Shown here: in pieces, positions 5,240 through 59,000 of the stretch
How the letters are laid out: each line of letters opens with the position of its first letter
Position numbering within the stretch: position 1 is the stretch's first letter
Origin: Patescibacteria group bacterium
Lineage (GTDB): Bacteria > Patescibacteriota > Minisyncoccia > Phycocordibacterales > DATDWN01
Reading direction: 5' to 3'
Assembly: GCA_040384485.1 (NCBI GenBank)
Contig: JAZKJH010000003.1
Coordinates: forward strand, 7,556 to 71,555
Length of the DNA: 64,000 nt
The notes under the pieces: model-generated
Databases searched by the model: none
Told to the model about the DNA's origin: nothing
The model's input: the letters and a program-made list of their open reading frames with translations, nothing else
Position numbers and translations under genes: made by a program

Positions 5240-5243
5240 GTTA

Positions 5244-5624: not shown

Positions 5625-5647
5625 AATACCTATATTCTACTATACAT

Positions 5648-5683
5648 AAAAATAGAATACACTTTTTGCATTGTGGATAGTAC
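5648..5683 (-). promoter_or_regulatory. Conserved upstream motif AAAATAGAATACAyTTTTTkCAkTTGTGGATAGTrC (copy 1)
   Basis: Near-identical 35-bp sequence (29-30/35) also present at 8305..8340 upstream of the paralogous giant gene. Contains a TATCCACA-like (DnaA-box-like) core and AT-rich -10-like elements. Confidence 0.45.
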
Positions 5684-5747
5684 ACCAAACGGCTGTATAA
5701 AAACACTGCTTCAAATCAGGTTTGGCTAGGTTACTTTTTTCGTGACC

Positions 5748-9689: not shown

Positions 9690-9732
9690 ATGAAGTGCTA
9701 ATATAGTATGCTAAAATGACTACAAACGCAAT

Positions 9733-10872
9733 ATGAACCAGGAAAAAACAGCTATAAATAAGGTTTGTTTTGTTGTCACTAAGGGCGTATGGGGAGGTGC
9801 TCAAAAGTATGTATACAACCTAGCAACAGGCCTGCCCAAAGATAGATACGAAGCTGTAGTTGTATGTGGCGAAGGAGGAGAACTTGTGAGCAGGCTGGAA
9901 GCAGCTCGGATACGTGTATACACCATAAACACCTTAAAACGTGACATTTCAATAAAATCAGAACTCCAAAGTTTCTTGCAACTTTTCAATATACTCAGAA
10001 CTGTGCGGCCCAATGTTTTACATCTCAATAGCCCAAAAGCGGGAGGGATCGGAGCCGTGGCTGGAAGACTACTAGGTATACCTAAAATAATTTTCACTTC
10101 CCACGGGTTTGCTTTCAATGAGATTCGCTCCCCTTTTCAAAAAGCCGTGATCAGGTTGTTCTCTTGGTTAATCTTGATATTGAACAAGCAAGTTATTGTT
10201 ATCTCTGACAAAGAAAAAGCGGATGCTTTGAATATGCCCTTTATATCAGAAAATAAAATTACCTTAATAAAAAACGGCGTTGAGAGTATTGGTTTTAAAG
10301 ACCGCGAACTTGCTCGAACGGAATTGATACAAATAGTAAATAAAGAAATCCCAAAAAACGTAACCTGGATTGGCACAGTCGCTGAACTACATAAAAACAA
10401 AGGTTATGAATATATGCTTTCTGCCTTGAGTAAACTCTCCTACCCTTTTGCTTACTTCATCATCGGTGCTGGTGAAGAAAAGGAAAAAATAGAAAAGTTA
10501 ATCCAGGAATTAAATTTATCCGACAAGGTTTTCATGGTTGGGTTCTTAAACCACGCCAGTGAACACTTGAAAGCCTTCGACATTTTCACACTGACATCAG
10601 TCAAGGAGGGTCTACCTTATACCGTTATAGAAGCTGGATTTGCAGGAGTACCCGTAGCTGCAAGCAACGTTGGTGGTATACCAGACATAATAGAAAACGG
10701 AACAAGCGGAATACTAGTGACAAAAGAAAAACCTGGAGAAATCCTAAAAGCTCTGGAGTACGTAAATGAACATCGAAACGAAGTGGAAACATTTGCACAA
10801 AACCTTAAACAAAAAGTTGAGAAAGAATTTTCACTTGATGTAATGTTGGAAAAAACAATAAAGTTGTACTGA
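9733..10872 (+). CDS. Glycosyltransferase family 4 (GT-B fold)
   Basis: EGLPYTVIEAGFAGVPVAASNVGGIPDIIENGTSGILV = GT4 E-x7-E region. Confidence 0.85.
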   Translation: MNQEKTAINKVCFVVTKGVWGGAQKYVYNLATGLPKDRYEAVVVCGEGGELVSRLEAARIRVYTINTLKRDISIKSELQSFLQLFNILRTVRPNVLHLNSPKAGGIGAVAGRLLGIPKIIFTSHGFAFNEIRSPFQKAVIRLFSWLILILNKQVIVISDKEKADALNMPFISENKITLIKNGVESIGFKDRELARTELIQIVNKEIPKNVTWIGTVAELHKNKGYEYMLSALSKLSYPFAYFIIGAGEEKEKIEKLIQELNLSDKVFMVGFLNHASEHLKAFDIFTLTSVKEGLPYTVIEAGFAGVPVAASNVGGIPDIIENGTSGILVTKEKPGEILKALEYVNEHRNEVETFAQNLKQKVEKEFSLDVMLEKTIKLY

Positions 10873-21800: not shown

Positions 21801-22272
21801 CTACTGGTGTAGTTGGAGTAGTTGGTGTTGTTGGTGTTGTACCACCCATTGAGTTCAACTTCGCTCTTGTGATCGCACCTACGTAACCAGCTGCTGGTGT
21901 GATTCCATGTTTTACTTGGAATTTTACAACTGCTGCTCTTGTAGCTAGACCAAAGTATGAAGTTTCCATACCAGGTGAGCCAGCTCCTGTAGCTGCAACT
22001 CTTGTATCAGCACTCATGTTAAGAACTTTTTGCAAGTTCATAACATCTGTACTTCTACTACCTACTGTTAAGTTTGTATTGAATGTGTATCCAGTTGAAG
22101 CTGAAGTACCACCACTCAATGCTGCCAACTGTGCTGACAATGAAGCGATCATTGCTTGTAGTTCTTCCATAGTTGCTGCACTAGTTGCACTTGGTGCAAC
22201 GAATGACAACGCCATAGCGAAACCTACAAATCCAGCGACGAATTTTGCAGTTTTTGATTTTGTTAAATTCAT
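18859..22272 (-). CDS. Large surface protein (~1137 aa) with N-terminal coiled segment and PG_binding_1-like peptidoglycan-binding domain, followed by long beta-rich Thr/Ser/Gly-rich region (S-layer-like)
   Basis: Start refined to MNLTKSKTAKF (signal peptide) at 22272. ...VGSRSTDVMNLQKVLN...YFGLATRAAVVKFQVKHGITPAAGYVGAITRAKL matches the PG-binding domain pattern. Confidence 0.8.
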   Translation of the reverse strand: MNLTKSKTAKFVAGFVGFAMALSFVAPSATSAATMEELQAMIASLSAQLAALSGGTSASTGYTFNTNLTVGSRSTDVMNLQKVLNMSADTRVAATGAGSPGMETSYFGLATRAAVVKFQVKHGITPAAGYVGAITRAKLNSMGGTTPTTPTTPTTPVAGSVSVSAGSQPTNSLAPKGSARVPFTTFTLTAGASDVTVNSVTVERGGLGDDAAFAGIVLLNSDGMQIGVAKTLNSNGQAIVGESWVIPAGTTRTYTIAGNMKADLTSYAGQVVSLKLVSVNTSATVSGSLPITGASHTLNNTLSLGTAQGSRGALDPNVSSSKEIGTTNHTFSSVKVDAGSGEDIKVWSIRWNQSGSASASDLANIKVYVDGTAYPTTVSSDGKYYSAVFSGGLMIAEGVSKEISIKGDIVGGTNRTVAFDIYKATDIYVTGETYGYGISLSSGTGFTVTNTPAFDAQGVVTITAGSASTISSSNTVGAQNIAVLVSDQPLGGFEVKMRGEAVTVDQMVFNLFANGNTVDAITNIKLVNQNGVVLAGPVDGVVTSGAAGTVTFTDSVTFPVGTTVVRLVGRLNSTFVTGDTVQASTTPSTQWTGVTGSSTGDTVSLSSFNSVITGNLMTVRGGALTITQSSQPSARAVIAGAQNFEFARYVLDAGQSGEDVRLSSFIAELGLSTITANQLSNCALYDGATNLTDATNITVASGSNTFTFNNGGFVVAKGTSKTLSLKCSLASGATSGSVTWSMTDFDASYTGATGVTSGLTVTEVTVANSGQTMTSATTGTFTVSNDSALLYKLAQAGTTGVELARLRFTAGATEAVDLKQIALELGNVASNSPADLVDQKVTLWYNGAQIGTAQFGGSVSDLATSTMLTPAPRIAAGESIVIVVKGDLTAQTVNQGTPGAFLTVNYDGGNNGINGNYGLGADSQTTVSGGTTSDVSTNGLRIFRTVPEVAVTSNGGTLSAGGDLYKFTVKNPSSRDIVFQKFSFTTATSGGAVSGFTLYGDGVAFNTVAADASGNGGTLLEILASGTSQAQIISANSTKTFVLRAATAVDGASVTDTISIALKADTAYPSLANLMGTVAGIEANDGDLDNIIWSPFSTTTAEATTATQSNLDWTNGYGLPGFPSNSAFPVQTWTRSN

Positions 22273-22460
22273 ATATATGTTTTTAATAAGAAATGATCTC
22301 TCTAAAGTTATTAATAAAATGTGTTTAGAGAAAACCATTTGTGAAAACTATTAACTAATTACCTTAATAATTTCTGATACGGCCACTTCAATATTCTTCG
22401 AACTTTCATTCGAAGAATATTCCGTGACCGCATCACATGCAATTTTTTTGTGCTCATATT

Positions 22461-39846: not shown

Positions 39847-42800
39847 TTAGAACTTAATCATTAGTGACAAACTCCCGTTTTCCAAAGAAACTTCATTTAC
39901 TTGTTTGTCGTTTGAATATTCTATTGCACCAACTCCTGTTGGAGTCGTGATCATATTTTTATATTCTTCTATAACAGCTTTTGTATTTTCGTCGACACAC
40001 AAAACTAAAGTTACAGAATCACTAGGACTTAGATTTTCTTTTTTCCTCAAATCCTGTATTCCTCGAACAATGTCCCTTGCCACTCCTTCCTTTCTCAAAT
40101 CATCTGTCAGGTCTGTGTCCAACTGAAGAGATTCTCCAACAGACACAGTTTTTACATTAACCTCATCAGCTATTATATCCAACAATTCTTGATTGAAGTT
40201 TTTATTTACAACCAAGCTTTGTAAAGGTTGTCGTACTTTGTGTCCGCTTTTCTGTCTTAGTTCCAATGCTGCAGTGACCACCCCACGTACTGATTCCATT
40301 TCTTCTACTAGTGCAGAGTCGATAGCACCAGCTTTTGGCCAACTACATAAATGCACACTTTCGTCGTCACCATCTTTTCTTACTTTCAGATATATTTCTT
40401 CAGCAAAAAACGGAGTAAATGGTGCCATATACTTCATAAGCTCTTGCAAAACAAACCCGGTTGTAGAAAGCGCATCGGTCTTTTCTTGTAGGTTATCTGA
40501 TTTAAACCTGTCTCTGGATCTTCTTACATACCAAGTAGAAAAATCGTTTACAAAATCTCTAACAGATCTAGCAGAATCAAAGACCTTAAATGCATCTAGA
40601 TTTTTTGTCCCCCCTTCTACCAGCTCGTTCAGTCTAGAAATAATCCATCTGTCCAAAACATCAGAACTTTCGTTGTTTGGTTTTATTGATCCGTCGTTGT
40701 ACATATTGTAGAACGCAAGAATATTTACTATTGGATTGAAAACTTTTTTAGTTATTTCATCCACAGTTTTCTCATCAAAGTTCTTCGAATCGCCTGGATT
40801 GTTTACTGAATACATCCAGAAGCGAAGTGCGTCAACTCCGTACTTGTTCATCAAATCCCAAGGGTCTAGAATATTTCCAACAGACTTACTCATCTTCTTA
40901 CCTTCTTTGTCCAATATATGACCCAAACAAATTACATTTTTATATGCTTTTCCTTTGCCCAAAAGAACCCCTATAGCATGCAAGGTATAGAACCACCCGC
41001 GAGTTTGATCTATCGCTTCTGAAATAAAGTCTGCTGGATAATTCACGTCTCCTTGGAAAGGATAATGATCCTGAGCAAAAGGCATAGCACCTGAGTCAAA
41101 CCAAACATCCATAACTTCTTTTACTCTCTTCATTGGAGTACCATCTTCGTCCACCAACTGCACTTCGTCTATATATGGTTTATGCAAATCTAGCTCAAAA
41201 TCAGAGTTGTATGGAAGCGGAACAAAATCCACTTTTCTTATTTCTGCGTTTTCGTAGTTTCTAAAACTTCTAGTAGATGTAAATAGTTTGGCTCTGGTGT
41301 AACCGTCTGCAACCAGACTCATGGCACGAGTAAGCCCACCATGAGAAACGATGAGAATATTTTTACCAGAGTATTGTTTCTCTAGTTTATACAAAAACTC
41401 TCCTACTCTTTTCAAAACATCATCGTATGACTCCCCACCTTCCGCTCTCCAAGCGTAACGGTCCGGACTTGAGTTTCTAGCAACAAAATAATCTTCTATT
41501 GGTTTTCCGTTCCATTCTTTTCCAGCATTCCATTCAACTATTGAGTCGTCCACGATAACCGACTCTGGAGAAATCCCTATAACCCCCGCAACTGTTTTTG
41601 CTGTTTGCATTGTCCTCTCAAAAGGAGAAGCTATTATCAAATCTATATTCTTATCTTTTAGGTATTCTGCATTCGCTTTTGCCAAAGCAACTCCTTTGTC
41701 AGTTAGAGGATCGTGATTTTCCACATTACAACTCCAAACTCCGTTTATGTTGCCCACCGACTCCCCGTGTCGCATAACAAAATAATTATTACCAGACTTC
41801 TTAACATATTTTTTCAAGTCAGCTATTGAACTGACAACTAGTTTGTCTCCGTTTTGTTTTTCCCAAATTGGCATAGGTGTTCCCCAGTATCTCTCTCGAC
41901 TTATTGCCCAGTCTTTTATTTCCCTTAGCCACTCACCAAACCTCCCCTCCTTTATGTGTTCCGGTTCCCAGTTCACCGCCTCGTTCTCTTTTACCAACTC
42001 ATCACGCAGGCTCGACATTTTTATATACCAAGAATCTCTTGCGTAGTAGATAAGTGCAGTTTTACATCTCCAGCAGTGAGGATAAGAGTGTTCATACTTT
42101 TCTTTTTTGAATAACTGCCCTCTTCCAGCCAGGTCTTTTATTATATCTATCGCCACCTCTTCATCTTTTACAAAACGGTTAGACAAAAACCCCATCTCAT
42201 CTAGGAAATGTCCGTCCTCCTTCACTAAGTGAAATTTTGGTAAACCTATTTGTGTTCCCAGAACAAAGTCTTCTTGCCCGTACATAACCGCAGTGTGCAC
42301 AATACCCGTTCCGTCGGTAGTAGTAACAAAGTCAGCAGAATAAACTTTGTATGATTTCGCGAATGCTTCGGGATTCTTTTCGGTAAATTTTTCGGCAAAG
42401 TACGGGTAGAGTGGTTCATATTCCATTCCAACACACTCGCTTCCTTTGTGTTCTGCAACTATTTCATATGGTTCTGTAATAACTGACAAACGTTCTTTTG
42501 CAAGAACAAGTATTTCATTTCCAACCTTTGCTTCGACATAAACAATATCCGGACCAACAGCTAGTGCTACGTTTCCAGGCAGAGTCCATGGGGTTGTAGT
42601 CCAGGCAAGGAAATAGGCGTTTTCAAAACCTTTTATTTTAAACTTTGCAGTAACAGATAAATCTTTGTCGTCTTGATAACCCTGAGCCAGTTCATGTGAG
42701 GACAGTGCTGTTCCACAACGTGGGCACCATGGTAGAACTTTGTAGTCTTTGTATAGCAAGCCTTTGTCGTCTACGGTTTTGAGAATATTCCAAACAGATT

Positions 42801-43269
42801 CTATGTAGTTGTTTTCGAAAGTGTAGTAAGCCTCTTCTTTGTTTACCCAGTAACCTATTCTGTCTGTAAACTTTTCCCAATCAGAAATATACTGAAATAC
42901 ACTTTCTTTACATTCGCGGTTAAACTTCTCTACTCCATACTGTTCTATGTCCTTTTTTGAAGTCAGTCCTAGTTTTTTCTCTATTTGAAGTTCTACCGGA
43001 AGTCCGTGTGTATCCCAACCAGCTTTTCGGCGCACGGAAAAACCTTGCATAGTTTTGTAGCGAGGGATTATGTCTTTGAATGCTCTAGCTTCTAGGTGAT
43101 GAAGTGCTGGCTTCGCGTTAGCTGTAGGAGGTCCTTCAAAAAATACAAACTCCCCTTTCGGTGATTCTTTTTGTAGAGTTTTATCAAAGATTTTGTTTTC
43201 ACTCCAAAAATTCAGAATGGATTCTTCTTTCTGGGCTACTTCTGATTTATTTTTTTCTTCTTCTTTCAT
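39847..43269 (-). CDS. ileS: Isoleucyl-tRNA synthetase (type 2-like) carrying an inserted histidine-phosphatase (PGM-family) domain
   Basis: PPTANAKPALHH (variant HIGH), WCPRCGTALSSHE, DWAISRERYWGTPMPIW ... DVWFDSG, KMSKSVGN. Residues ~493-657 (nt 41299..41793) form an RHGE...SHGG histidine-phosphatase module. Confidence 0.9.
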   Translation of the reverse strand: MKEEEKNKSEVAQKEESILNFWSENKIFDKTLQKESPKGEFVFFEGPPTANAKPALHHLEARAFKDIIPRYKTMQGFSVRRKAGWDTHGLPVELQIEKKLGLTSKKDIEQYGVEKFNRECKESVFQYISDWEKFTDRIGYWVNKEEAYYTFENNYIESVWNILKTVDDKGLLYKDYKVLPWCPRCGTALSSHELAQGYQDDKDLSVTAKFKIKGFENAYFLAWTTTPWTLPGNVALAVGPDIVYVEAKVGNEILVLAKERLSVITEPYEIVAEHKGSECVGMEYEPLYPYFAEKFTEKNPEAFAKSYKVYSADFVTTTDGTGIVHTAVMYGQEDFVLGTQIGLPKFHLVKEDGHFLDEMGFLSNRFVKDEEVAIDIIKDLAGRGQLFKKEKYEHSYPHCWRCKTALIYYARDSWYIKMSSLRDELVKENEAVNWEPEHIKEGRFGEWLREIKDWAISRERYWGTPMPIWEKQNGDKLVVSSIADLKKYVKKSGNNYFVMRHGESVGNINGVWSCNVENHDPLTDKGVALAKANAEYLKDKNIDLIIASPFERTMQTAKTVAGVIGISPESVIVDDSIVEWNAGKEWNGKPIEDYFVARNSSPDRYAWRAEGGESYDDVLKRVGEFLYKLEKQYSGKNILIVSHGGLTRAMSLVADGYTRAKLFTSTRSFRNYENAEIRKVDFVPLPYNSDFELDLHKPYIDEVQLVDEDGTPMKRVKEVMDVWFDSGAMPFAQDHYPFQGDVNYPADFISEAIDQTRGWFYTLHAIGVLLGKGKAYKNVICLGHILDKEGKKMSKSVGNILDPWDLMNKYGVDALRFWMYSVNNPGDSKNFDEKTVDEITKKVFNPIVNILAFYNMYNDGSIKPNNESSDVLDRWIISRLNELVEGGTKNLDAFKVFDSARSVRDFVNDFSTWYVRRSRDRFKSDNLQEKTDALSTTGFVLQELMKYMAPFTPFFAEEIYLKVRKDGDDESVHLCSWPKAGAIDSALVEEMESVRGVVTAALELRQKSGHKVRQPLQSLVVNKNFNQELLDIIADEVNVKTVSVGESLQLDTDLTDDLRKEGVARDIVRGIQDLRKKENLSPSDSVTLVLCVDENTKAVIEEYKNMITTPTGVGAIEYSNDKQVNEVSLENGSLSLMIKF

Positions 43270-43469: not shown

Positions 43470-43705
43470 ACAAAAACCCGTCCGCGTATAACAAATAATT
43501 GCTATACAAGGACGAGCTTCTCGTGGTACCACCTTGTTTTTTACCCCGCCCAGTTGCGGGGACTCTCTTTACTGCTATAACGGGCTTACCCGTTGGGTTC
43601 TACATCTGCCTCTGCAGATTCTTCCCAAAACTCGGGGGTGATTAGTCCCCCTCAGCGTCTATATCAAAATATTACCAAACAAAACCTTTTATGTCCAAAC
43701 GAATA
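43470..43705 (-). promoter_or_regulatory. Candidate T-box riboswitch leader for ileS
   Basis: Minus strand contains AAGGUGGUACCACGA at 43523-43531 (T-box consensus AGGGUGGNACCGCG), an AGAGA GA-motif, and a downstream CGUCC...GGACGGGUUUUUGUUU terminator (43472-43500). Confidence 0.4.
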
Positions 43706-43771: not shown

Positions 43772-44140
43772 CTACTTACAACCACCTCCGATGAGGCCAC
43801 CCAAGAAGTGGATTTTCTGCCCGTCGGCGAGCGTCATCCACCCTGTTCCATTGCGGATCCAAACCCGCAAGGGACGGAACTCCTGCCCCTCAACTTTCAC
43901 AACGCAGTTGGCGGCGTTGTGGGCTTCGAGCTTCGCAATCAATGCCTGGGATTGCGCTGCCCCGATTCTGGCCTCTTCCTTACCAAGCCAAACTGTGGCG
44001 ATTGCGAGAACAATGATAATGCTCGCGACGCCAACTTTGTGACGAACTTCGAACATCGACCACAGGCTTGGGAGGAAAACCATCCCTCCAATAAAAGCGA
44101 CGAAATCCAGACAGAACACAACAAGGAACAGAGTTTCCAT
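43772..44140 (-). CDS. Hypothetical protein (122 aa): two N-terminal TM helices plus C-terminal soluble domain ending ...GGLIGGGCK. Lies in a 58%-GC island
   Basis: ATG at 44140 with GGAGAA RBS, perfect promoter upstream, terminator downstream. The ORF-track N-terminal extension (to 44206) is 5' UTR. Confidence 0.55.
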   Translation of the reverse strand: METLFLVVFCLDFVAFIGGMVFLPSLWSMFEVRHKVGVASIIIVLAIATVWLGKEEARIGAAQSQALIAKLEAHNAANCVVKVEGQEFRPLRVWIRNGTGWMTLADGQKIHFLGGLIGGGCK

Positions 44141-46004: not shown

Positions 46005-46427
46005 TTATTTTCCTGTGCTTCCAAAACCACCAATTCCTCTTTCTGTACTAGATAACTCTTCTGTTTCTACTATCTCAATGTGTTCAACTTTCTGTATTAA
46101 CATCTGCGCAACCTTGTGACCTTTTTCGAAAGTGTAACTTTCTTTACCTAAGTTTATAACCCCCACAACCACTTCCCCTCTATATCCAGAATCTATCACA
46201 CCTCCCAGAGTTTTTATACCGTGCTTCATAGACAGACCACTTTTGTCCCAAACTAGGCCCACAAAACCTTCTGGTATTTCTGTTGCAACTCCAGTTTTTA
46301 TCCCTATTTTTTCTCCTGGACTAACTGTTGTATTTTCTAAAGCGAACACATCCATCCCTGCATCACCTTTTGTTGCGTACGCTGGCAACTTTGAGTCTGG
46401 ATACAACTTCTTGAACTTAACTATCAT
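46005..46427 (-). CDS. dut: dUTP diphosphatase
   Basis: ...IDSGYRGEVVVGVINLGKE... dUTPase motifs. 140 aa. Confidence 0.9.
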   Translation of the reverse strand: MIVKFKKLYPDSKLPAYATKGDAGMDVFALENTTVSPGEKIGIKTGVATEIPEGFVGLVWDKSGLSMKHGIKTLGGVIDSGYRGEVVVGVINLGKESYTFEKGHKVAQMLIQKVEHIEIVETEELSSTERGIGGFGSTGK

Positions 46428-46493
46428 ACGCCCATAATAGCATTGACCCAGGTGTTTTTAAAGAGTAGTATCGGCTACAGAAGGAGGTACGGC

Positions 46494-47009
46494 ATGTGGA
46501 ACATAACGCTAGTTGTGGCAATGGACAGAAACCGAGCAATCGGTGTTGGCAACAAGATTCCTTGGAGGTTGCCTGAGGAACAGCACTACTTCAAGAGTAG
46601 GACAATCGGCAAAGTGGTGGTAATGGGTCGCAAGACTTATGAATCACTTCCGAGGTCAGTACGTCCCTTACCTTGGCGGATAAACGTAATTCTGACGCGA
46701 GACACAAGTTTTGTGGCAGAAGGTTGTGGAATTGTTCATGACCATAAAACCATTCTCGAAAGAGCTGCACTTGGTCAAATGAACATGATTATCGGAGGTG
46801 AAGAGATTTACAAACTCTTTCTTCCTTATGCCAATCGACTCTTGGTCACGATAATCGACACTGAAATCGAAGGCGCAGACAAGTTCTTTCCAGAAATAAA
46901 CTCTGAGGAGTGGCAAGAAGTTTTTCTTCGTTCACACGAAGCAAATACAAAAAACGCACACTCATTTGCCTTTTTGGAGTACTTCAGAAAGCCGTCCCGT
47001 GGAGCCTAA
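46494..47009 (+). CDS. folA: Dihydrofolate reductase
   Basis: MWNITLVVAMDRNRAIGVGNKIPWRLPEEQHYFKSRTIGKVVVMGRKTYESLP. GGAGG RBS before ATG at 46494. GC-rich. Confidence 0.85.
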   Translation: MWNITLVVAMDRNRAIGVGNKIPWRLPEEQHYFKSRTIGKVVVMGRKTYESLPRSVRPLPWRINVILTRDTSFVAEGCGIVHDHKTILERAALGQMNMIIGGEEIYKLFLPYANRLLVTIIDTEIEGADKFFPEINSEEWQEVFLRSHEANTKNAHSFAFLEYFRKPSRGA

Positions 47010-47235
47010 AAGCTCCACGGTTTTTTTATTGGAAGCCGAGAATATCTCGTAGCGAAGCGCACGAGAATGAGAGGCGTATGATAGTGGTGGCGGAGCCACT
47101 TCTAATACCAACAAAACAGCCCCGATGTTGTCCGTTCAACACACCATCAGCTTGCTGCAGGATTTGAGCGGACAACCGGTTTTATTTGACTCAAACTTTC
47201 TATAGTTATAGTATGTGCCGAGAAATGGAGGGGTG

Positions 47236-48135
47236 ATGAACCCAAACTATGCACCTTACGAAAAACGAAAAGCAGATACTCAGTACAAGCACAATCTTCG
47301 ACGGGTGCTCAAACGAGGTCAGTTGACTGGAAATCCTTTCCAGACCCAAAAGACCCTGACGCACCTGACTTTGCCAGCCATGAATTTCAAATTGGCAAAC
47401 GGATTCCCGCTCATCACTGAGAGGAAAGCCAGTTTTTGGAGAGCTCCCATCGGTGAACTTCTTGCTTTCATTCACGGAGCAAGAACTATCGAGGAACTCG
47501 ATAGTTGGGGTTGCAAGTGGTGGGACAAATGGGCTACCCCTGAAAAATGTGCCGACTTTGGCCTGCCACCTGGCGACCTCGGTCCTGGCTCATACGGAGC
47601 TGCCTTCCACGACTTCCCCATGCCCAACGGTGGAACTTGGAACCAGTTCGAAGCTGTGATTAAGCAAATCAAAGCTTTGCCCAGCCTGAGAACGCATTTG
47701 GTTACAAGTTGGATTCCGTTCTACTCGGTTGGTGACAACAGAAAAGTTGTTGTGGCTCCGTGTCATGGAAACATGATTCAGATTACTGTAATCAATGGTA
47801 AGCTGACTCTTCGCATGGTACAGAGGTCAGGAGACTTTCCCATCGGTGTGCCGTCGAACATGGTTCAGTACGCGGCGCTGACTATTATGATTGCACATGT
47901 CACTGGTTACGAGCCATACATGTACATTCACCAAGTCAACGATGCCCAGATGTATCTGGATCAGGAGGAACAAGTGCGTGGAATTGTTTCGAGAGAGACA
48001 GTTCCGTACCCAACCCTCAGGCTCACTGCGGAAGGTTTGAAAGTCACTGACTTGTTCGATTTCAGACCAGAGCATTTCGAGTTGTCTGACTACCACCCAG
48101 GACCAGCGATCCCGGGTATCCCAGCGACAATCTAG
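47236..48135 (+). CDS. thyA: Thymidylate synthase family protein (divergent ThyA)
   Basis: GFPLITERK..FW......ELLAFIHG, DLGPGSYG, VAPCHG (PCH catalytic Cys), QRSGDFPIGVPSNMVQYAAL (Asn retained, consistent with dUMP specificity). Start refined to MNPNY with GGAGGGG RBS. Confidence 0.75.
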   Translation: MNPNYAPYEKRKADTQYKHNLRRVLKRGQLTGNPFQTQKTLTHLTLPAMNFKLANGFPLITERKASFWRAPIGELLAFIHGARTIEELDSWGCKWWDKWATPEKCADFGLPPGDLGPGSYGAAFHDFPMPNGGTWNQFEAVIKQIKALPSLRTHLVTSWIPFYSVGDNRKVVVAPCHGNMIQITVINGKLTLRMVQRSGDFPIGVPSNMVQYAALTIMIAHVTGYEPYMYIHQVNDAQMYLDQEEQVRGIVSRETVPYPTLRLTAEGLKVTDLFDFRPEHFELSDYHPGPAIPGIPATI

Positions 48136-48218
48136 TTCTTTCCAAACACACAAGCTGTACTCTCTGGGGTATGGCTTGTTTTTTATTCGCAAAGTGATAT
48201 AAAGCTATTGGAGGAAAC

Positions 48219-48674
48219 ATGTCCGAAGTACACCTTGGAAACGCTCGGGATCCCGAACAACTCCGAAGAATGGAGGAATTGCAAAAAAAAGGAGACTGTC
48301 ATTTTTGTGGAGACATTGGCCAGAAACACACTGCGCCTGTTATCAAAACGACAGAAAACTGGTTTGTAGTTGCAAACGACTTTCCGTACAAAGGTTCAAT
48401 TCACCACTATCTGGTAGTAAGTCGTGCTCACATCACGAAAATTTCCGAGGTGAGAACCGATGCAAGAATTGAACTGTTTGAAGTTGCTCATTGGCTCGAA
48501 ACAAAACTTGATGTAAATGGATTTTCATTTTTTGTCCGGTCAGGAAACATGTCGCTGACTGGTGCAACACTCGACCATTTGCATTTCCATTTTTTGGTTG
48601 GTGCCGAAAAGCCAAAGAACGCGAAATTTCCCGATGACAACTTGCTTGTAACCCTAGGGTACAAGGAAAAATAA
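48219..48674 (+). CDS. HIT-like (histidine triad, HxHxH) nucleotide hydrolase/transferase family protein with CxxC
   Basis: ...LDHLHFHFLVG histidine-triad-like motif and CHFCGD zinc-ribbon-like element. Confidence 0.5.
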   Translation: MSEVHLGNARDPEQLRRMEELQKKGDCHFCGDIGQKHTAPVIKTTENWFVVANDFPYKGSIHHYLVVSRAHITKISEVRTDARIELFEVAHWLETKLDVNGFSFFVRSGNMSLTGATLDHLHFHFLVGAEKPKNAKFPDDNLLVTLGYKEK

Positions 48675-48678
48675 ATAA

Positions 48679-48713
48679 CCCCCGACTCTACTCACGTAGA
48701 CTCGGGGGTTTTT
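48679..48713. terminator. Bidirectional terminator between convergent genes
   Basis: CCCCCGACTCTACTCACGTAGACTCGGGGG + TTTTT. Confidence 0.75.
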
Positions 48714-49567
48714 CAAATTCTCACCTGAACAATGGAAACTCTTCCCTCACGCAAGACTTCCGTCGCATTCAGAACTGAGTAACCATCCTTAAAGAACACT
48801 TTCTTGATTCCTGCTGCCACAATTTCTCGGGCGCAGTCCTCACATGGGAAAGTTGTAACGTACACAGAAGCACCTTCTGTAGCCAAACCTCTCCTGGCAC
48901 ATTCAGCAATCACTCCTCGCTCTGCATGCATTGCACAAGACTTTCCCTTCTCTCCTGCATTTGCATATAAACGAGGATCACTGAACGCATAAGTTACGTA
49001 TTCATCAGGCATGTGCCTGTTGAAGGCAATGGCGAGAGAATCACCTTTGGAGTCCACGATGAGTGCTGCAACTTGCCGCCACCAATCAGGACTTTTAGGT
49101 AAAACTTGTATTGCCGCTTTCATACAAACTTTGTCAAAGTGACTGTTACTAACGACCATATCTGGAATAACCGGCTGCTCCCTAGTCACTGCAGACATAT
49201 CGTATCTTGCCCAAATCATTTCAAATACAATCTGTTCTTTTGGAACATCTTGCATGAACTTCTCAACAAGAAGTTGTGTGACATCTTCGTCAGGCAGGTA
49301 AACTTTACATCCTGATACATAAGACAGATGCTCTTTCACATCCTCAGTGCCAACTACATACACAGAGCGAACTAGGCCACCGATTCCCTCAATCGACTCC
49401 TTAATCATATGTGCGGGTAAGGAAGCCATGTTTCTAGCCAACCTAGGCACAAGGGACTCTACAAGTTCTTTTGAAACCAGATACAAAACCGAGTTCGGAC
49501 CGTGTTTCGTAAACCAATCAATGTGTCGTTGGTTGAGTGTGGGTATGTAAGCAACAAGAATACTCAT
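48713..49567 (-). CDS. Deoxycytidylate (dCMP) deaminase with ~140-aa N-terminal extension
   Basis: C-terminal CAMHAERGVIAEC...PCEDCAREI zinc-binding cytidine/dCMP deaminase motifs (H-A-E, PCxxC). Confidence 0.75.
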   Translation of the reverse strand: MSILVAYIPTLNQRHIDWFTKHGPNSVLYLVSKELVESLVPRLARNMASLPAHMIKESIEGIGGLVRSVYVVGTEDVKEHLSYVSGCKVYLPDEDVTQLLVEKFMQDVPKEQIVFEMIWARYDMSAVTREQPVIPDMVVSNSHFDKVCMKAAIQVLPKSPDWWRQVAALIVDSKGDSLAIAFNRHMPDEYVTYAFSDPRLYANAGEKGKSCAMHAERGVIAECARRGLATEGASVYVTTFPCEDCAREIVAAGIKKVFFKDGYSVLNATEVLREGRVSIVQVRI

Positions 49568-50253
49568 TGCTTATCTCCCTCCTTTTTGCCCAATTTCACA
49601 GTGCGACCTTCTCGATGAAAATAATCTTCGATGGCTGTACTGATACCATTAATTGCTGCCCTCGCCGAATTCAAAGACTCGTCGATATGATCAACAAGTC
49701 CACCAGCTCCGTCAATCATCAAGTCCCGAAGACGTGCGGTTGTGGAAATAGTCGCTGTTGGCTCAAGAACCACCAGCTCTCCACAAAGCTCTTTAAGCTT
49801 TCGGTGGTCTTCCTCACTGATATCTTTTGTAGATTTGGACATTACTAGAACATCTGGTTTGATTAACCGGATGATATACATCGGATCGTCAACATGCCGG
49901 TCAACATCCCGAATTGTCAAAATGTTAACAGAACGAATGTTTGCCAGAAGCTCTAACCTTTCCTCGAAAGGCACGGCTGGTCGTCGTTCGTTGGCCTTGC
50001 CTTTGCGAAGACGCGTGTACTCATCAGAGTCCACTGCCACCACAAGAATTGCACCTTCTCCGCCTGCCTTCAAAGCTTCTGCGAGATAACGTGCATGACC
50101 GATGTGTAAAAGATCGTAAACGCCTTGGGTCATCACAATGGGATGGCCGACTTGTCGAAATGACTCGATTGTTCGAGTCAAAACTTCGTAATCAGCGATA
50201 AACCTATCTTTCAGGTCAACGGTTGTGCCGAGAATCCTTCTCAATGGAACCAT
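49564..50253 (-). CDS. Cytidylyltransferase-like nucleotidyltransferase (TagD/RfaE-domain-II family)
   Basis: GVYDLLHIGHARYL (HxGH), ...VAVDSDE..., ...ISTTARLRD matches the glycerol-3-phosphate cytidylyltransferase pattern. Start refined to MVPLRR with AGGGAG RBS. Confidence 0.7.
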   Translation of the reverse strand: MVPLRRILGTTVDLKDRFIADYEVLTRTIESFRQVGHPIVMTQGVYDLLHIGHARYLAEALKAGGEGAILVVAVDSDEYTRLRKGKANERRPAVPFEERLELLANIRSVNILTIRDVDRHVDDPMYIIRLIKPDVLVMSKSTKDISEEDHRKLKELCGELVVLEPTATISTTARLRDLMIDGAGGLVDHIDESLNSARAAINGISTAIEDYFHREGRTVKLGKKEGDKQ

Positions 50254-50303
50254 ATCATTCTCCCTATCAAATAACTTTCCTGCTATAAAGATATACCAAC
50301 CAA

Positions 50304-50338
50304 ACAAAAAAGATACTGGACATCCAGTATCTTTTTTG
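50304..50338 (-). terminator. Rho-independent terminator immediately after rplK
   Basis: AGATACTGGACATCCAGTATCT hairpin flanked by A-run/T-run. rplA does not follow rplK. Confidence 0.7.
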
Positions 50339-50363
50339 TTTTAAAATTTGTTTAAATTTTAGA

Positions 50364-50786
50364 CTATTTTACGTCCACGCCCATACTTCGAGCACTTCCT
50401 TCGATGATTTTCATTGCTGCCTCAACATCGTTTGCGTTTAGGTCAGGCATTTTCTTTTCTGCTATTTCTTTCACCTGAGCTTTTGTAAGAGTTCCTATCT
50501 TAGAAACTGCGTTTTTACCAGAGCCTTTTTCTTTTCCTAGAGCTTTCAAAATAAGGTTTGAAGCTGGAGGAGTCTTAAGTACGAAAGAGAAAGTTCTGTC
50601 CTCGTATACTGAGATTTCTACAGGAACAACATCTCCCACCATTTTAGATGTAGCATCGTTGAACTGCTTTACGAATTCACCAATGTTTACTCCCGCCTGT
50701 CCCAAGGCTGGTCCAACTGGAGGCGCAGGGTTAGCCTTACCTGCTGGAATGACGAGTTTTAGTTTTTTTGTTATCTTTTTTGCCAT
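50364..50786 (-). CDS. rplK: 50S ribosomal protein L11
   Basis: [35 protein letters not shown]... canonical L11. Confidence 0.95.
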
Positions 50787-50831
50787 AAATTTGTGTGGTG
50801 ATACTCTAATATAAAATCACTTAAATTGCAA

Positions 50832-51377
50832 TTATATCTTCTTAATTTGTAGGAAATCCAATTCGACAGGTGTTTCTCGTCCGAACATAGCTACGAGGAC
50901 CTTTACCTTACCTCTCTCCTCATCTACCTCGTTTACCTTACCTTCCAAATCCTTGAATGGACCATCAACGATCTTGATAGCGTCGTTTATAGCAAGGTCA
51001 ATTTTGTGTTTTGCTGTATGAGCATTCATCCGGGCAAACAAATCATCAACCTCCTTTTTATCTATTGGAACTGGATACACTCCTGAACCTACGAAACCGG
51101 TAACACGGGGGGTGTTTCTAACCACGAACCAAGAATCCTCAGTCACTATCATGTCTACCAAAATGTAACCAGGATATATTTTTTCATCTTCCTCAACTCT
51201 TTTACCAGCCTTTATTTTTATTTTCTTTTCTGTAGGAACAATCACGTTGAAAATTTTGTCTTCCATTCCAAGGGATTCTATTCTTTGTTTTAGGTTTCTT
51301 TGCACTGCGTTCTCATACCCAGAGTATGTGTGAACCACGTACCAATTTCTCCCAGTTTGCACTTGTTGTCGTGACAT
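50832..51377 (-). CDS. nusG: Transcription termination/antitermination factor NusG
   Basis: NGN domain WYVVHTYSGYE... and KOW ...GKVKVLVAMFGRETPVELDF. Confidence 0.9.
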   Translation of the reverse strand: MSRQQVQTGRNWYVVHTYSGYENAVQRNLKQRIESLGMEDKIFNVIVPTEKKIKIKAGKRVEEDEKIYPGYILVDMIVTEDSWFVVRNTPRVTGFVGSGVYPVPIDKKEVDDLFARMNAHTAKHKIDLAINDAIKIVDGPFKDLEGKVNEVDEERGKVKVLVAMFGRETPVELDFLQIKKI

Positions 51378-51405
51378 ATTTTATAGTAGGTTAAAAGTAA
51401 ATAAA

Positions 51406-51585
51406 TTAAATAACAAACTTCTCGATGATTTGCTGAAGAATATAATCAAAGAATCCCAAAAAGAATGCAGTAAAGATTGATATCAAAACTACGACAATAG
51501 TAAAAATAGTTGCCTGACTTTTTGTCGGCCAACTAACGTGCTTTAACTCTCCTCTTGTATCTTTTATGTATGTTATAAGACTCAT
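51406..51585 (-). CDS. secE: Preprotein translocase subunit SecE (59 aa)
   Basis: Not in the ORF track (<60 aa). MSLITYIKDTRGELKHVSWPTKSQATIFTIVVVLISIFTAFFLGFFDYILQQIIEKFVI. Canonical secE-nusG-rplK order. Confidence 0.7.
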   Translation of the reverse strand: MSLITYIKDTRGELKHVSWPTKSQATIFTIVVVLISIFTAFFLGFFDYILQQIIEKFVI

Positions 51586-56756: not shown

Positions 56757-59000
56757 CTACCTAAACAAACTATTGAATAGACTTTTGATTGCTTCTAGAG
56801 AGTTTGCTATTTGGTCTAAATTGGTTGAATTGGCTTTAGACACACTTCCACAACTCACCTTTACTCCTGTCGGATTTAGTTTTGTGTACTCACCTCCAAC
56901 ATTTCTTGCATAAACATACACATAATGATTCTTACCGTCCTTCAGACTACTTGGGGTGAAGAAACTAAAAGCGTGTTGACCCACATCAGCTCTGTTTATA
57001 TTCGCATCGTAGTCACCTATTTTCTTCCAATATAGATTTTCCACTTTACTCCAAACTTGTACCTGAATAGCTGTGTTTGGGTTATCTCCATCCTTCGCCC
57101 AACCCCCAAAGATGTCACAATTTGCTGCATCCAAATATCCAGAAGTTGCTACAGCTGGTGCGTCTCTTGGAGGAGTATCTTCGTAGACGGTTATGTTAAA
57201 CATTTTGACTGCGATTTGGGTACCAGATTGAACAGTTACAGTAAACACGTAATAGCCGGGAGTAGTTGGTACACCACTGAGAGTAAAGGATGTTTTACAA
57301 GGGCCCTCACTTCTGCAAGCAATCTGGATTATTTCAGTTCCAGGGGGTATTATGCCGGAAGAAACAGACCAAGAGTATGATTGTGAACCGCCAGTAGCTT
57401 GTATGGTAGTTGACCAATTCTCCCCCGCTTTTGTTTTTGGAAGATTAAAATCTGAAGTAATAGAAAGTGGACTAAAAGTTTCTGCGATTATCAGGGTCTG
57501 TTCAGTTGAAACAATTCCAGATCCTCCAATATCCAAACGCAAAGAAAACTTATATGTGCCTGCTCGAGTGGGAGTGCCTGTAACACCTATACAACTAGGT
57601 GAACATGAAGCAGTTTTTTGTAGAGTTAGTCCTGGAGGTAATTCTCCGGAAGCTAAGCTGTATGATGTCGCCTTGCTAATATCTCCAGTAAAATTAAATG
57701 ATCCAGTATAGTTACTACCCGTAAAACCCATTGGCAAACTTATTGATTTAATGGTCGGAACTACCTCGCCATTAGAATCACCTTTAACTGTTACCTGAGC
57801 AACAGCACTCATGGTCACTCCACGAAAATTCTGATACGTAGCTTTTAGTATAGTGGCGCCTGGAGCAACCCCAACAATATCAGTGGTTGGTTTTGGACAC
57901 TCTTGCCCAACTACACATCTTGGCGTAGCTATCGCTAGTCTAGCTATCGATTCGTTTGCAATGGACCATGTTGGACTTACCTCTGTTGGTGCAGGTCGGC
58001 AAACAATATTTCCAGAAGTAGGACACCCGGTAGTGAATATTGCCTTAAGCCTACTCATGTCGTTTACATTCAAATTTATTGGGTTAGGAGAAATCTCAAA
58101 AATATCTGGTGAAAGTGCTACAGTAGTTTGAGTATTAGAAGTTGTAGTTGGTTGTGTTTGAGTGGTTGTAGTATTTGTAGCGTCACCTGCCTCTACTGAA
58201 ATAGTAAATTCTTTTCTTCCAACTTTATCACCATACTTAACCATAACTACAAATTTCCTATCTGCCACAGTAACTGATGGTGTTCCAGAAATAACCATAT
58301 CATTACCGTTTTCTCGCAAATACAAACCGGTTGGCAACTGCCCAGATTCGATTGACCATAGATAATGCGCAGTCACAACTCCACTTGGTCCACCAGAAAC
58401 AGCCAAGTTCACCTGATATGTAGAATTTATTCTAGCTTTTGGAAGAATAGCTGCATTTGTGATTGTTAAGTTTTGAGACGTTGATGGAGTAACGGTGGTA
58501 GACGATGTGTTTGAGTTTGTTGTAGTTGAGGATGAGCTGGTACTACAAGGATACAGCTTATTTAATTTTGCACGTGTTCCGGCTCCAACTATACCTGTGC
58601 CGAATTTTAATCCAGAAGGAGTAAGCACTTCCCCTTTATACTTCTCTTGAAAACCAGTTACTGCAGAGGCAGTACTCTCTTCATATGTTGAACTAGTCTT
58701 TTCTTCACTGTCTATACTAAAACCTTCTTTAGTCAGTACCTCGTGAAGCCAAGAAACACTCTTGCCATTACTTCCAGCTCTTAGGGTTGCTGTGAACGCA
58801 ACACAATTATTGGAATTAGCTGACTGATTGGATCCTGAAAGAGTTGCGTTTTGAGTCTGCAGAGCCTTTACTTGCTCCATCAGCTTCTGAACCAATGCTT
58901 GTAGTTCCGAAGTCGACATTGTCGCAGTTTGTGCTGATACAAAAAAAGGCAACAAAAGAAAAGCCCCTGTTACCATCCCCCACTTGATGAATTTATTCAT
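56757..59000 (-). CDS. Large surface protein (747 aa) with N-terminal coiled segment, PG-binding-like domain, Thr/Ser-rich linker and multiple putative-Ig (He_PIG-like) domains
   Basis: Signal peptide. ELQALVQKLMEQVKALQ coiled segment. ...GTRAKLNKLY PG-binding-like end. Repeated G.TGTPT.AGTY.F Ig-like modules. Architecture parallels 18859..22272. Confidence 0.8.
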   Translation of the reverse strand: MNKFIKWGMVTGAFLLLPFFVSAQTATMSTSELQALVQKLMEQVKALQTQNATLSGSNQSANSNNCVAFTATLRAGSNGKSVSWLHEVLTKEGFSIDSEEKTSSTYEESTASAVTGFQEKYKGEVLTPSGLKFGTGIVGAGTRAKLNKLYPCSTSSSSTTTNSNTSSTTVTPSTSQNLTITNAAILPKARINSTYQVNLAVSGGPSGVVTAHYLWSIESGQLPTGLYLRENGNDMVISGTPSVTVADRKFVVMVKYGDKVGRKEFTISVEAGDATNTTTTQTQPTTTSNTQTTVALSPDIFEISPNPINLNVNDMSRLKAIFTTGCPTSGNIVCRPAPTEVSPTWSIANESIARLAIATPRCVVGQECPKPTTDIVGVAPGATILKATYQNFRGVTMSAVAQVTVKGDSNGEVVPTIKSISLPMGFTGSNYTGSFNFTGDISKATSYSLASGELPPGLTLQKTASCSPSCIGVTGTPTRAGTYKFSLRLDIGGSGIVSTEQTLIIAETFSPLSITSDFNLPKTKAGENWSTTIQATGGSQSYSWSVSSGIIPPGTEIIQIACRSEGPCKTSFTLSGVPTTPGYYVFTVTVQSGTQIAVKMFNITVYEDTPPRDAPAVATSGYLDAANCDIFGGWAKDGDNPNTAIQVQVWSKVENLYWKKIGDYDANINRADVGQHAFSFFTPSSLKDGKNHYVYVYARNVGGEYTKLNPTGVKVSCGSVSKANSTNLDQIANSLEAIKSLFNSLFR

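Follow-up and report, generated by a model that had tools for sequence, protein, structure and literature searches.

Among the closest known counterparts of the locus analysed here is the canonical set of dTMP genes, comprising dut, a comEB-type dCMP deaminase, thyA and folA, of which thyA and folA are adjacent in many bacteria (PMC11974145). In CPR bacteria folA is common and functional and complements E. coli (PMC11974145), and dTMP synthesis belongs to the minimal gene repertoire (PMC11974145, PMC12455944), so that its presence in a reduced genome is not as striking as an earlier note on this DNA had supposed. The OD1-L1 Parcubacteria are described in the literature as having lost ribosomal protein L1 (PMC5220378); the passage of that paper citing Brown et al. 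2015 gives this loss as the definition of the group.

Here, we analysed a 64-kb stretch of DNA from a metagenome-assembled genome, termed the window, in which a block of thymidylate genes (46440–50340) lies next to secE-nusG-rplK. We consider it probable that this block, including the history and the recurrent-exchange composition outlined below, represents a native, clade-wide thymidylate-supply cluster of Parcubacteria (Patescibacteria/CPR) and not an inserted island.

Gene content and predicted chemistry of the block

Pfam and TIGRFAM matches confirmed all genes claimed in the earlier note, namely dut, folA, thyA, a HIT protein, a dCMP deaminase with an extra N-terminal domain and a cytidylyltransferase-like gene:

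46005..46427, minus strand: dut, dUTP diphosphatase (Pfam dUTPase 107 bits; TIGR00576 153 bits, above cut-off)
46494..47009, plus strand: folA, dihydrofolate reductase (DHFR_1 176 bits)
47236..48135, plus strand: thyA, thymidylate synthase, Parcubacteria variant (PF00303 201 bits; TIGR03284 159 bits, cut-off 108)
48219..48674, plus strand: Hint-like HIT protein (PF01230 28 bits, cut-off 21.5)
48713..49567, minus strand: dCMP deaminase fusion, whole gene (deaminase domain at residues 145–259 by Pfam)
48713..49153, minus strand: dCMP-deaminase domain of the fusion, approximately residues 139–284 (PF00383 55 bits)
49154..49567, minus strand: N-terminal domain of the deaminase, residues 1–138 (predicted nucleotidyltransferase-like Rossmann-type fold)
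49564..50253, minus strand: HldC/TagD-like nucleotidyltransferase, cytidylyltransferase-like (PF01467 44 bits)
50302..50341, no strand: two-way intrinsic terminator at the rplK/cluster boundary (perfect 19-nt arms)
50364..51585, minus strand: secE-nusG-rplK operon, no rplA after it (L11, TIGR01632 190 bits)

The dut gene directly adjoins argS. For folA the likely start is ATG 46494; the open reading frame opens earlier at TTG 46443, and the DHFR_1 domain begins at residue 21 of this longer frame. The chosen starts of thyA (299 aa) and of the transferase (229 aa; ATG 50253 with a GGGAGA ribosome-binding site) are the same as in the independent gene calls on the assembly L001. The transferase stop and the deaminase start overlap by 4 nt, which suggests translational coupling, and this pair is transcribed in the direction of rplK, with folA, thyA and HIT on the opposite strand. 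Terminator-like sites follow folA (hairpin, 46997–47020) and thyA (48150–48179), and a promoter-like site precedes thyA (47186–47214). The strong terminator said to close secE-nusG-rplK was borne out as a hairpin at 50302–50341 with a folding energy of −23.7 kcal/mol and A and T runs flanking both sides, 95% conserved in the closest metagenomic relatives, L083 and L084; it would insulate the transferase-deaminase pair from rplK.

Judged by family membership, Dut would convert dUTP and the deaminase dCMP into dUMP, which ThyA would methylate to dTMP, oxidising methylene-tetrahydrofolate to dihydrofolate, and FolA would regenerate tetrahydrofolate. The four families and their intact catalytic motifs, together with the thyA-folA adjacency, match the canonical dTMP genes. 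The locus differs from them in the 138-residue nucleotidyltransferase-like domain of the deaminase, in the HldC-like transferase and the Hint-like protein as constant cluster members, and in ThyA, where only two of the four arginines that bind phosphate remain, R21 being lost and R127 replaced by Thr (72 of 79 homologues). These losses, as well as two conserved nucleotide-handling accessory genes and an extra deaminase domain lacking an assigned role, could point to a hydroxymethylase or an enzyme acting on a non-standard substrate, whose product the transferase and the HIT protein would elaborate as in phage thymidine hypermodification. We regard such a modified DNA base as improbable, as ThyA retains its full set of catalytic residues and the dUMP-specifying N177 (C146, H147, E58, R166, D169, N177 and Y209 are conserved in 78–79 of 79 homologues), and the L. 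casei equivalent of R127 is reportedly non-essential. Furthermore, thyA adjoins folA, a gene that only a true reductive methylation, with dihydrofolate as its product, would require, the window shows neither a second thyA nor a thyX, and the folA genes of CPR bacteria complement E. coli (PMC11974145).

Conserved position beside rplK and the loss of rplA

As the earlier note had observed, rplK is not followed by rplA, and no homologue of L1, nor of L10 or L7/L12, was found in the 64-kb window. The note had read this as a horizontally acquired, possibly phage-derived module that landed in, or displaced, the rplK-rplA junction. The missing rplA, the higher GC of the block with its limits at gene boundaries, the td/frd/cd sets carried by phages and the 3,534 phage records matching ThyA all fit a recent event of this kind, which the comparison with related genomes nevertheless contradicts and leaves very unlikely.

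Among 80 species-level genomes (Zambryski-, Nomura-, Kaiser-, Adler- and Nealsonbacteria as well as other Paceibacterota), there are 54 in which secE-nusG-rplK is immediately followed by the same set of genes in an unchanged order, with no rplA. The common order, secE-nusG-rplK-[transferase-deaminase]-[HIT-thyA-folA]-(dut)-argS-ileS, recurs in dozens of Parcubacteria species at protein identities of just 30–60% (deaminase 30–55%), and transferase, HIT and thyA accompany the deaminase in 77 of the 80 genomes, even where the cluster has another location. L083 and L084 share the layout of the window exactly, with protein identities to the window of 71–96% in the flanks (PAP2 51%) and 59–81% in the cluster; nucleotide divergence from both is equal inside and outside the block, without a jump in identity at the cluster edges.

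Pfam-verified rplA was present in three relatives only (L053, L066 and L074), where the cluster follows it either immediately or after a gap of about 1.3 kb. In L066 and L074 rplA directly adjoins the cluster, an arrangement that the earlier note itself had named as evidence against an insertion. These three lineages form the outgroup of the rplA-less clade in a nusG+rplK tree, which, like our other trees, was built by neighbour-joining from few genes with long branches; the nearest neighbours of the flank genes are noisy too. The comparison thus shows that the cluster adjoined a secE-nusG-rplK-rplA operon before rplA was lost, and that a deletion of rplA, in the ancestor from which the L1-less Parcubacteria descend, brought rplK next to it. 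The window and the 54 related genomes resemble the OD1-L1 Parcubacteria in having rplK without a following rplA, and differ in that the former rplA position is always taken by the thymidylate cluster. To our knowledge, the published description of OD1-L1 is silent on what occupies this position.

The phage comparison pointed in the same direction. T4-type td/frd/cd modules hold the same three enzyme families together, but no phage ThyA exceeds 35% identity, compared with 42–81% in Parcubacteria, their accessory genes differ, and the fused deaminase is covered by no phage record. A homologue turned up in a single one of 2.9 million viral contigs, in which thyA and HIT are absent. No integrase, tRNA, other mobility gene, flanking or att-like repeat was found at the cluster. 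Thus, an origin from phages or a distant phylum is not supported.

Finally, since the source is a metagenome-assembled genome, a GC-richer fragment could have been joined into an AT-rich contig during assembly or binning. Such a chimera is extremely improbable, as these junctions are shared by more than 55 assemblies made independently in many studies, and the separate Logan assembly L001 spans the rplK/cluster junction with proteins 99–100% identical.

Base composition and proposed exchange among Parcubacteria

The GC contrast described in the earlier note is real, but was overstated: the block has 45.7% GC, the remainder of the window 39.6% and the immediate flanks 37–39% (not ~48–50% against 33–36%), and only the thyA stretch reaches 50%. 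The five cluster genes show GC3 values of 0.40–0.53 (thyA 0.53, folA 0.45–0.47), ranking 3, 7, 8, 12 and 13 among 55, and the other 50 ORFs average 0.345 (sd 0.07); dut, at 0.31, resembles the flanks, in agreement with its description as an AT-rich left edge. A permutation test for any equally GC3-rich run of five genes among the window ORFs gave p = 0.28, and positions 1–8000 equal the block in raw GC because of their amino-acid composition (GC2 ~0.62, GC3 ~0.28). Taken alone, the window is therefore weak evidence for an offset, which becomes convincing only because relatives repeat it.

Across genomes, the cluster is richer in GC3 than its flanks in 25 of the 27 with flank values below 0.40 and poorer in 13 of the 15 with flank values of 0.55 or more, with a regression slope of 0.49; these sign tests ignore shared ancestry. 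L006 and L002 display sharp plateaus of ~52% GC in the cluster versus ~35% in the flanks. The compositional anomaly of the block is thus real, and the composition of the cluster does not track its genome. As the shift extends to every codon class and to the spacers within the cluster, it does not reflect codon selection.

Gene identities are mosaic. The thyA genes of L054 and L081 are 85% identical against ~50% for the flanks, L044 and L047 show the reverse (flanks 71–96%, cluster 44–63%), L006 thyA is 78% identical to L023 and 46% to L021 at equal flank divergence, and in the L005 group the flanks are distant and the cluster nests within the clade of the window. This suggests exchange in place among Parcubacteria. 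The raised GC is most likely, with moderate confidence, due to other Parcubacteria, whose homologues would repeatedly have replaced the cluster, or individual genes in it, without any change of chromosomal position; this would pull the composition toward a clade-wide middle value. Hence, the horizontal acquisition proposed earlier holds in the form of apparent exchange at a fixed position, and not as a recent or phage import. Xenologous displacement in conserved operons was reportedly described by Omelchenko and colleagues in 2003; fixed position, discordant gene identities, foreign-looking composition and sharp edges are common to both. Here, in contrast, the donors appear to be other Parcubacteria instead of distant phyla, and the effect seems recurrent and clade-wide with composition decoupled in both directions, as judged without formal reconciliation.

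Several observations fit a strictly vertical inheritance, with the offset maintained through selection, or through a local bias of mutation or repair confined to the 3.8-kb block. The order of per-gene GC (thyA > folA > deaminase and transferase > HIT) is repeated in the window, L083 and L084, where the offset persists despite heavy turnover at four-fold sites. In the sister genomes L083 and L084 the cluster shows no surplus of GC-to-AT changes, with 6 of these and 16 in the opposite direction; the numbers are small, and they agree better with an offset that is stably upheld than with an import that is fading. Lineages whose clusters are all GC-rich have reached essential saturation at four-fold sites relative to one another, so that an old transfer should no longer look foreign, which counts against exchange. 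The cluster tree broadly agrees with the flank tree. No exchange event was detectable in the window genome since its split from L083 and L084, and 5.8 billion proteins yielded no near-identical donor of any cluster gene; the top matches, ThyA at 81% and the deaminase at 62%, both come from the closest relatives. We nonetheless consider vertical inheritance the less likely, if still serious, explanation: there is no known mechanism for a block-specific equilibrium that is richer in AT-rich and poorer in GC-rich genomes, codon selection does not account for the shift, and the tree conflicts and mosaic identities are clear.

The deaminase fusion and its accessory genes

The deaminase domain matches the profiles of solved dCMP deaminases (4p9c, 2hvv and 1vq2), and its HAE and PCxxC zinc motifs are invariant. 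Residues 1–140 have no Pfam match. An AlphaFold2 model of the N-domain (pLDDT 89, pTM 0.81) found its best solved-structure matches in cytidylyl- and adenylyltransferases (5x3d, 5xf2 and 1coz; TM 0.55–0.62, E ~5e-3), predicting a nucleotidyltransferase-like Rossmann-type fold that belongs to no sequence family. Among 1.84 billion representatives it occurs only at the amino terminus of ~280-aa proteins (472 clusters).

An anti-phage nucleotide-depletion system centred on the deaminase appears highly unlikely. The deaminase shares the zinc-deaminase core of anti-phage dCTP deaminases, with partial matches to NCBIfam NF041025 (77 bits) and PADLOC dCTPase (78 bits), and the HIT protein weakly matches ThsC. 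These deaminase matches, however, span only ~65 residues around the zinc site, the NCBIfam score is far below the cut-off of 400 bits, and the N-domain differs from the kinase-like domain of those defence proteins. The genomic context differs as well: nearly every relative has the gene at a fixed core-genome place with thyA, folA and dut as neighbours, which speaks for a housekeeping role in metabolism.

The closest solved structure to the transferase is HldC (5x9q), and its HxGH and ISTT motifs are invariant. The HIT protein, which adjoins thyA in 78 of 80 relatives, combines an HLHFHF histidine triad with an N-terminal CHFC motif and weakly matches solved HIT/Hint structures. Speculatively, judged by fold and by the conserved gene neighbourhood, the transferase and the HIT protein might act together on a deoxynucleoside triphosphate such as dCTP and so supply the deaminase with its monophosphate substrate, and the N-domain might serve as a nucleotide-sensing regulatory module. 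Overall, the block is ordinary biology with one odd compositional feature. Its interest lies in that feature and in the uncharacterised parts of the cluster, namely the N-domain of the deaminase and the two accessory proteins (HldC-like and Hint-like).

Layout of the cluster and loss of rplA

The block at 46440-50340 holds five genes, of which folA, thyA and a Hint-like HIT gene lie on the plus strand and converge on a minus-strand pair formed by a nucleotidyltransferase and a fused dCMP deaminase.

Features of the block and its immediate surroundings, in window coordinates
46005-46427, minus strand: dut, left of the block, followed by argS and ileS, also on the minus strand
46494-47009, plus strand: folA
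47236-48135, plus strand: thyA
48219-48674, plus strand: Hint-like HIT gene
48713-49567, minus strand: deaminase of 284 aa, its C-terminal half a dCMP deaminase; 4-nt overlap with the transferase gene
49564-50253, minus strand: HldC/TagD-like nucleotidyltransferase (transferase); ATG start, GGGAGA upstream
50302-50341: terminator hairpin with perfect 19-nt arms, A and T tracts, -23.7 kcal/mol
50364-50786, minus strand: rplK
50832-51377, minus strand: nusG
51406-51585, minus strand: secE

All family assignments of the block genes passed their Pfam cut-offs, so that the gene list of the earlier note was correct, as was its strong terminator beyond rplK. This hairpin lies inside the 110-bp spacer between rplK and the cluster, and further terminator-like hairpins follow folA and thyA, with a promoter-like site before thyA. 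A profile search of the 64-kb window for L1, L10 and L7/L12 gave no homologue, confirming that rplK is followed by the spacer and the cluster rather than by rplA.

A profile search with the fused deaminase retrieved 80 species-representative genomes, all from Parcubacteria/Patescibacteria (Zambryski-, Nomura-, Kaiser-, Adler-, Sung-, Lipton- and Nealsonbacteria, and Paceibacterota), those nearest to the window being labelled Minisyncoccia, Parcubacteria or Zambryskibacteria, in keeping with its placement within the Parcubacteria. The deaminase was accompanied by the transferase, the HIT protein and thyA in 77 of the 80. The order secE-nusG-rplK, transferase-deaminase and then HIT-thyA(-folA) on the opposite strand, without rplA, was found in 54 genomes, often with dut, argS and ileS next; the position of folA varied slightly among relatives. 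The cluster was located elsewhere in 15 genomes, and the contigs were too short to judge in eight. As the deaminase is merely 30-55% identical across these genomes, the gene arrangement is old. In the two closest relatives, the metagenomic contigs L083 and L084, the layout is identical to that of the window and the terminator is 95% conserved, with a nucleotide identity to the window of ~72-75% that is alike inside and outside the block; the encoded proteins are 71-96% identical for the flanks (PAP2 51%) and 59-81% for the cluster. The rplK/cluster junction was furthermore reproduced in a separate assembly (L001, Logan).

We found rplA in three loci (L053, L066 and L074), Pfam-verified at 175-201 bits. 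The order is secE-nusG-rplK-rplA-transferase-deaminase in L074 and nusG-rplK-rplA-folA-transferase-deaminase in L066, whereas in L053 rplA lies ~1.3 kb from thyA. A neighbour-joining tree of nusG plus rplK placed these three loci as the outgroup to all loci lacking rplA. Absence of rplA is an established feature of this lineage; the OD1-L1 Parcubacteria take their name from the lack of rpL1 (PMC5220378). In the simplest history, the cluster would have adjoined the L11-L1 operon first, with rplA lost once afterwards. The insertion at, or displacement of, the rplK-rplA junction that the earlier note had proposed is contradicted by the same order recurring in 54 species and by rplA abutting the cluster in L066 and L074; the relatives thus show rplA directly beside the same genes, an ancestral arrangement.

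Neither rplJ nor rplL follows rplK or rplA in the window or in any of the 82 related loci, the loci retaining rplA included, so that the classical L11-L1-L10-L12-rpoBC linkage no longer holds anywhere in the group.

Phage, mobile-element and defence readings

A phage origin was examined by searching 50,697 phage records with ThyA and the deaminase (tblastn), by an IMG/VR scan and by a PHROGs scan, and was rejected, as these yielded only domain-level matches of at most 35% identity. The best phage matches of ThyA were 32-35% identical, compared with 42-81% in Parcubacteria, and in the tblastn search none of the 50,697 records matched the fusion beyond its deaminase half. The suggested origin from phages or a distant phylum hence found no support. 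A homologue was present in one of 2.9 million IMG/VR contigs. This contig, L082 (IMGVR_UViG_3300037483_001116, 158 kb, 62% GC), carries the transferase-deaminase pair alone at 9522-10804, with no thyA or HIT gene nearby, and may be a cellular contig labelled viral.

Likewise, the patchy presence or empty site by which genomic islands are recognized was not what we observed: L083, L084 and 54 less closely related species all carry the cluster at the same position. The ORFs include no integrase or transposase, no repeat brackets the cluster, and there is no tRNA at its edges, the nearest tRNA being at 55265. Functional folA is common in CPR bacteria, and dTMP synthesis belongs to their minimal repertoire (PMC11974145, PMC12455944). 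The dTMP genes are therefore expected here, and their presence in a reduced genome is not the exceptional feature it had been taken for. Together, the cluster genes are the lineage's own, and the reading as a phage-like island displacing rplA, which would have been notable had this framing held, is wrong.

An anti-phage defence system was also considered and rejected, since PADLOC and NCBIfam gave partial matches at the zinc site only. Against NF041025, the model for anti-phage dCTP deaminase, the deaminase reached 77 bits where the cut-off is 400, over residues 212-275 only. The anti-phage enzyme has an N-terminal kinase-like domain, in contrast to the different fold of the N-domain in the window's deaminase.

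Base composition and proposed exchange among Parcubacteria

The window has an overall GC content of 39.9%, with 45.7% in the block, 39.6% elsewhere and 37-39% in the immediate flanks, and within the block ~50% is reached by thyA only. The GC offset described in the earlier note is thus real, albeit overstated in magnitude, and dut is AT-rich like the flanks, as had been noted, with a GC3 of 0.31. The GC3 of the five block genes ranges from 0.40 to 0.53 (0.44), compared with 0.345 ± 0.07 across the other 50 ORFs. A gene-order permutation, asking for a five-gene run equally GC3-rich anywhere in the window, gave p = 0.28, and the window on its own is therefore weak evidence of an anomaly. At 1-8000 raw GC equals that of the block, owing to second codon positions in very large proteins rich in Gly, Ala and Thr. 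Four very large ORFs in the window (747-1382 aa; 1091-5239, 5748-8222, 18859-22338 and 56757-59000, all on the minus strand) have a GC2 of 0.50-0.64 and a GC3 of only 0.25-0.28. Since amino-acid composition alone makes such ORFs as rich in raw GC as the block, raw-GC island calling is unreliable here.

Relatives showed a larger GC offset than the window did. In the related loci L006 and L002 the block, over its entire length and including its spacers, forms a plateau of ~50-55% GC within flanks of ~30-40%, with sharp edges at the same gene boundaries. Across 51 genomes, cluster GC3 exceeded flank GC3 in 25 of 27 with a flank GC3 below 0.40, by up to +0.37, and fell below it in 13 of 15 genomes with a flank GC3 of at least 0.55, by down to -0.23. 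Regression gave cluster GC3 = 0.27 + 0.49 × flank GC3 (r = 0.64); both these sign tests and the regression ignore shared ancestry. The compositional decoupling of this housekeeping cluster is thus reproducible. The shift covers two-fold and four-fold codons and both C and G, trending to even base use. Codon selection was ruled out as its cause, because two-fold Y, two-fold R and four-fold sites shift together with the spacers, which were delimited by alignment ends and include some coding ends. A single ancient import that is losing its foreign composition does not fit, on two counts: saturation at four-fold sites is essentially complete between lineages whose clusters have all stayed GC-rich, and in the cluster of the sister pair L083/L084 GC-to-AT changes (6) are not in excess over the reverse (16; the numbers are small and parsimony is biased).

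Comparing flanks and cluster between relatives revealed strongly conflicting similarities. For the pair L054/L081, thyA is 85% and the transferase 72% identical, compared with about 45-53% for most flank genes; for L044/L047, the flanks are 71-96% identical and the cluster 44-63%. The thyA of L006 is 78% identical to that of L023 and 46% identical to that of L021, at equal flank divergence. Two transferase types occur inside the window's own subclade, and in neighbour-joining trees the L005 group (L005, L009, L014 and L016) is distant in nusG/rplK, its cluster being nested in the window's clade. These sequence comparisons indicate that the cluster, or single genes of it, would have been replaced in place. 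With moderate confidence, the decoupled composition is best explained by Parcubacteria recurrently replacing like with like at this locus. The main rival explanation is a composition bias maintained locally at the cluster. For the window itself, gene identities follow those of the flanks closely across all relatives (residuals at most 0.06), and neighbour-joining trees gave no gene-tree conflict with its closest relatives. A search of 5.8 billion proteins with the ThyA of the window and of L006 revealed no recent thyA donor, with no match above 81% and 78%, respectively.

To the left of the block, an ORF of 121 aa (43775-44140, minus strand; 52% GC, GC3 0.62) lies between argS and the T-box leader of ileS. 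The ORF is equipped with a promoter-like site of its own (TTGACA-17 nt-TATAAT), a ribosome-binding site and a terminator hairpin; searches of Pfam, NCBIfam, PADLOC and PHROGs gave no match. L083 and L084 lack the ORF and carry a PemK toxin gene in its place, in L083 along with other genes. Recent acquisition is more plausible for this ORF than for the flagged block. The T-box leader upstream of ileS (43505-43664, minus strand) scored 69.9 bits (E = 8e-15), below the Rfam gathering score of 93, and is therefore absent from a default Rfam scan. In ileS (39847-43269) an inserted His_Phos_1 domain (41284-41781, minus strand; 104 bits, residues 497-662) splits the catalytic domain, and this histidine-phosphatase insertion in the isoleucyl-tRNA synthetase is also annotated in L084. 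Among relatives that are otherwise similar (L002-L081), the identity of IleS to that of the window has two modes, at about 0.45-0.49 and 0.62-0.78, which suggests two IleS types that may be swapping within the clade.

Predicted enzymes and their proposed pathway

ThyA scored 200.6 bits for PF00303 (cut-off 24.3) and 158.9 bits for TIGR03284 (cut-off 108.35). In E. coli numbering, based on a reference sequence that aligned cleanly, the window protein has Cys146-His147, Glu58, Asp169, Tyr209 and the dUMP-specifying Asn177, as do 78-79 of 79 homologues. Of the four arginines that bind phosphate (R21, R126', R127', R166), only R166 and R126 are retained: R21 is replaced by Pro in the window and by Ile, Pro or Thr across the family, and 72 of 79 homologues have Thr for R127. 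Because the R127 equivalent of the L. casei thymidylate synthase is reportedly non-essential, ThyA is expected to be a working synthase; that it would convert dUMP to dTMP with release of dihydrofolate is supported indirectly by the adjacent folA. Activity as a hydroxymethylase was also considered; the retained Asn177 and the adjacency of folA speak against it. An insertion follows the SAW motif in the Parcubacteria ThyA proteins (the window and 79 homologues, loci L002-L081), and His207 is often Gln (26/79, the window included). A database protein, P0132, that is 61% identical to the window's ThyA is labelled 'Thermoplasmatota archaeon' and lies on a 4.5-kb contig, probably a mis-binned Parcubacteria fragment. 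FolA scored 175.7 bits for PF00186 (cut-off 25) and 125 bits for the type 3 DHFR equivalog model, below its cut-off of 168.

The dCMP deaminase half of the fusion (PF00383, 54.6 bits, cut-off 25) matches solved dCMP deaminases, with H214, E216, P241, C242 and C245 of the zinc-binding H-A-E and P-C-x-x-C motifs invariant; with 54 bits, it did not reach the cut-off of 219 of the ComEB equivalog. The N-domain (residues 1-138) had no match in the Pfam search. Its structure model (pLDDT 89, pTM 0.81) is closest to cytidylyl/adenylyltransferase folds (Fom1, HldC, TagD; TM 0.55-0.62, E about 5e-3), and it carries N-Q-R-H at the H-x-G-H position of HIGH-motif nucleotidyltransferases (PF01467). Among 1.84 billion representatives the domain is confined to the N-terminus of ~280-aa proteins, in 472 clusters. 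From the model, we read the N-domain as a putative nucleotide-binding, possibly regulatory domain. That it is a copy of the adjoining transferase was rejected, as profile-profile comparison found no similarity. The transferase (PF01467, 44.3 bits, cut-off 21) has intact HxGH and ISTT motifs with G44, D47, H50, G52, H53 and T171 invariant, and its 80 bits for the RfaE domain II equivalog remained below the cut-off of 181. The HIT protein (PF01230, 28.3 bits, cut-off 21.5) contains the histidine triad as HLHFHFL and showed weak matches to solved Hint proteins.

By family membership, dUMP would be formed from dUTP by Dut and from dCMP by the deaminase, ThyA would convert it to dTMP, producing dihydrofolate, and FolA would regenerate tetrahydrofolate. 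More speculatively, the transferase and the HIT protein could turn dCTP into dCMP via a nucleotidylated intermediate, supplying the deaminase. We put forward, as a tentative and rather unlikely proposal, that the cluster is a fixed-position exchangeable cassette, repeatedly replaced in place, whole or gene by gene, with versions from other Parcubacteria and therefore showing near-even base use in AT- or GC-rich hosts and, jointly, that transferase, HIT protein and N-domain would constitute an undescribed deoxycytidine-nucleotide route into thymidylate synthesis, in organisms unable to make nucleotides from scratch.

GC-based island calling misfires on such conserved housekeeping loci, and the block offers a clean test case for conserved loci as hot spots of like-for-like exchange in CPR versus a local compositional force. 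It represents a compact, clade-wide five-gene thymidylate unit in bacteria otherwise dependent on scavenged nucleotides, and knowing what the deaminase fusion and the two accessory enzymes do would shed light on the balance of DNA precursors in CPR bacteria.
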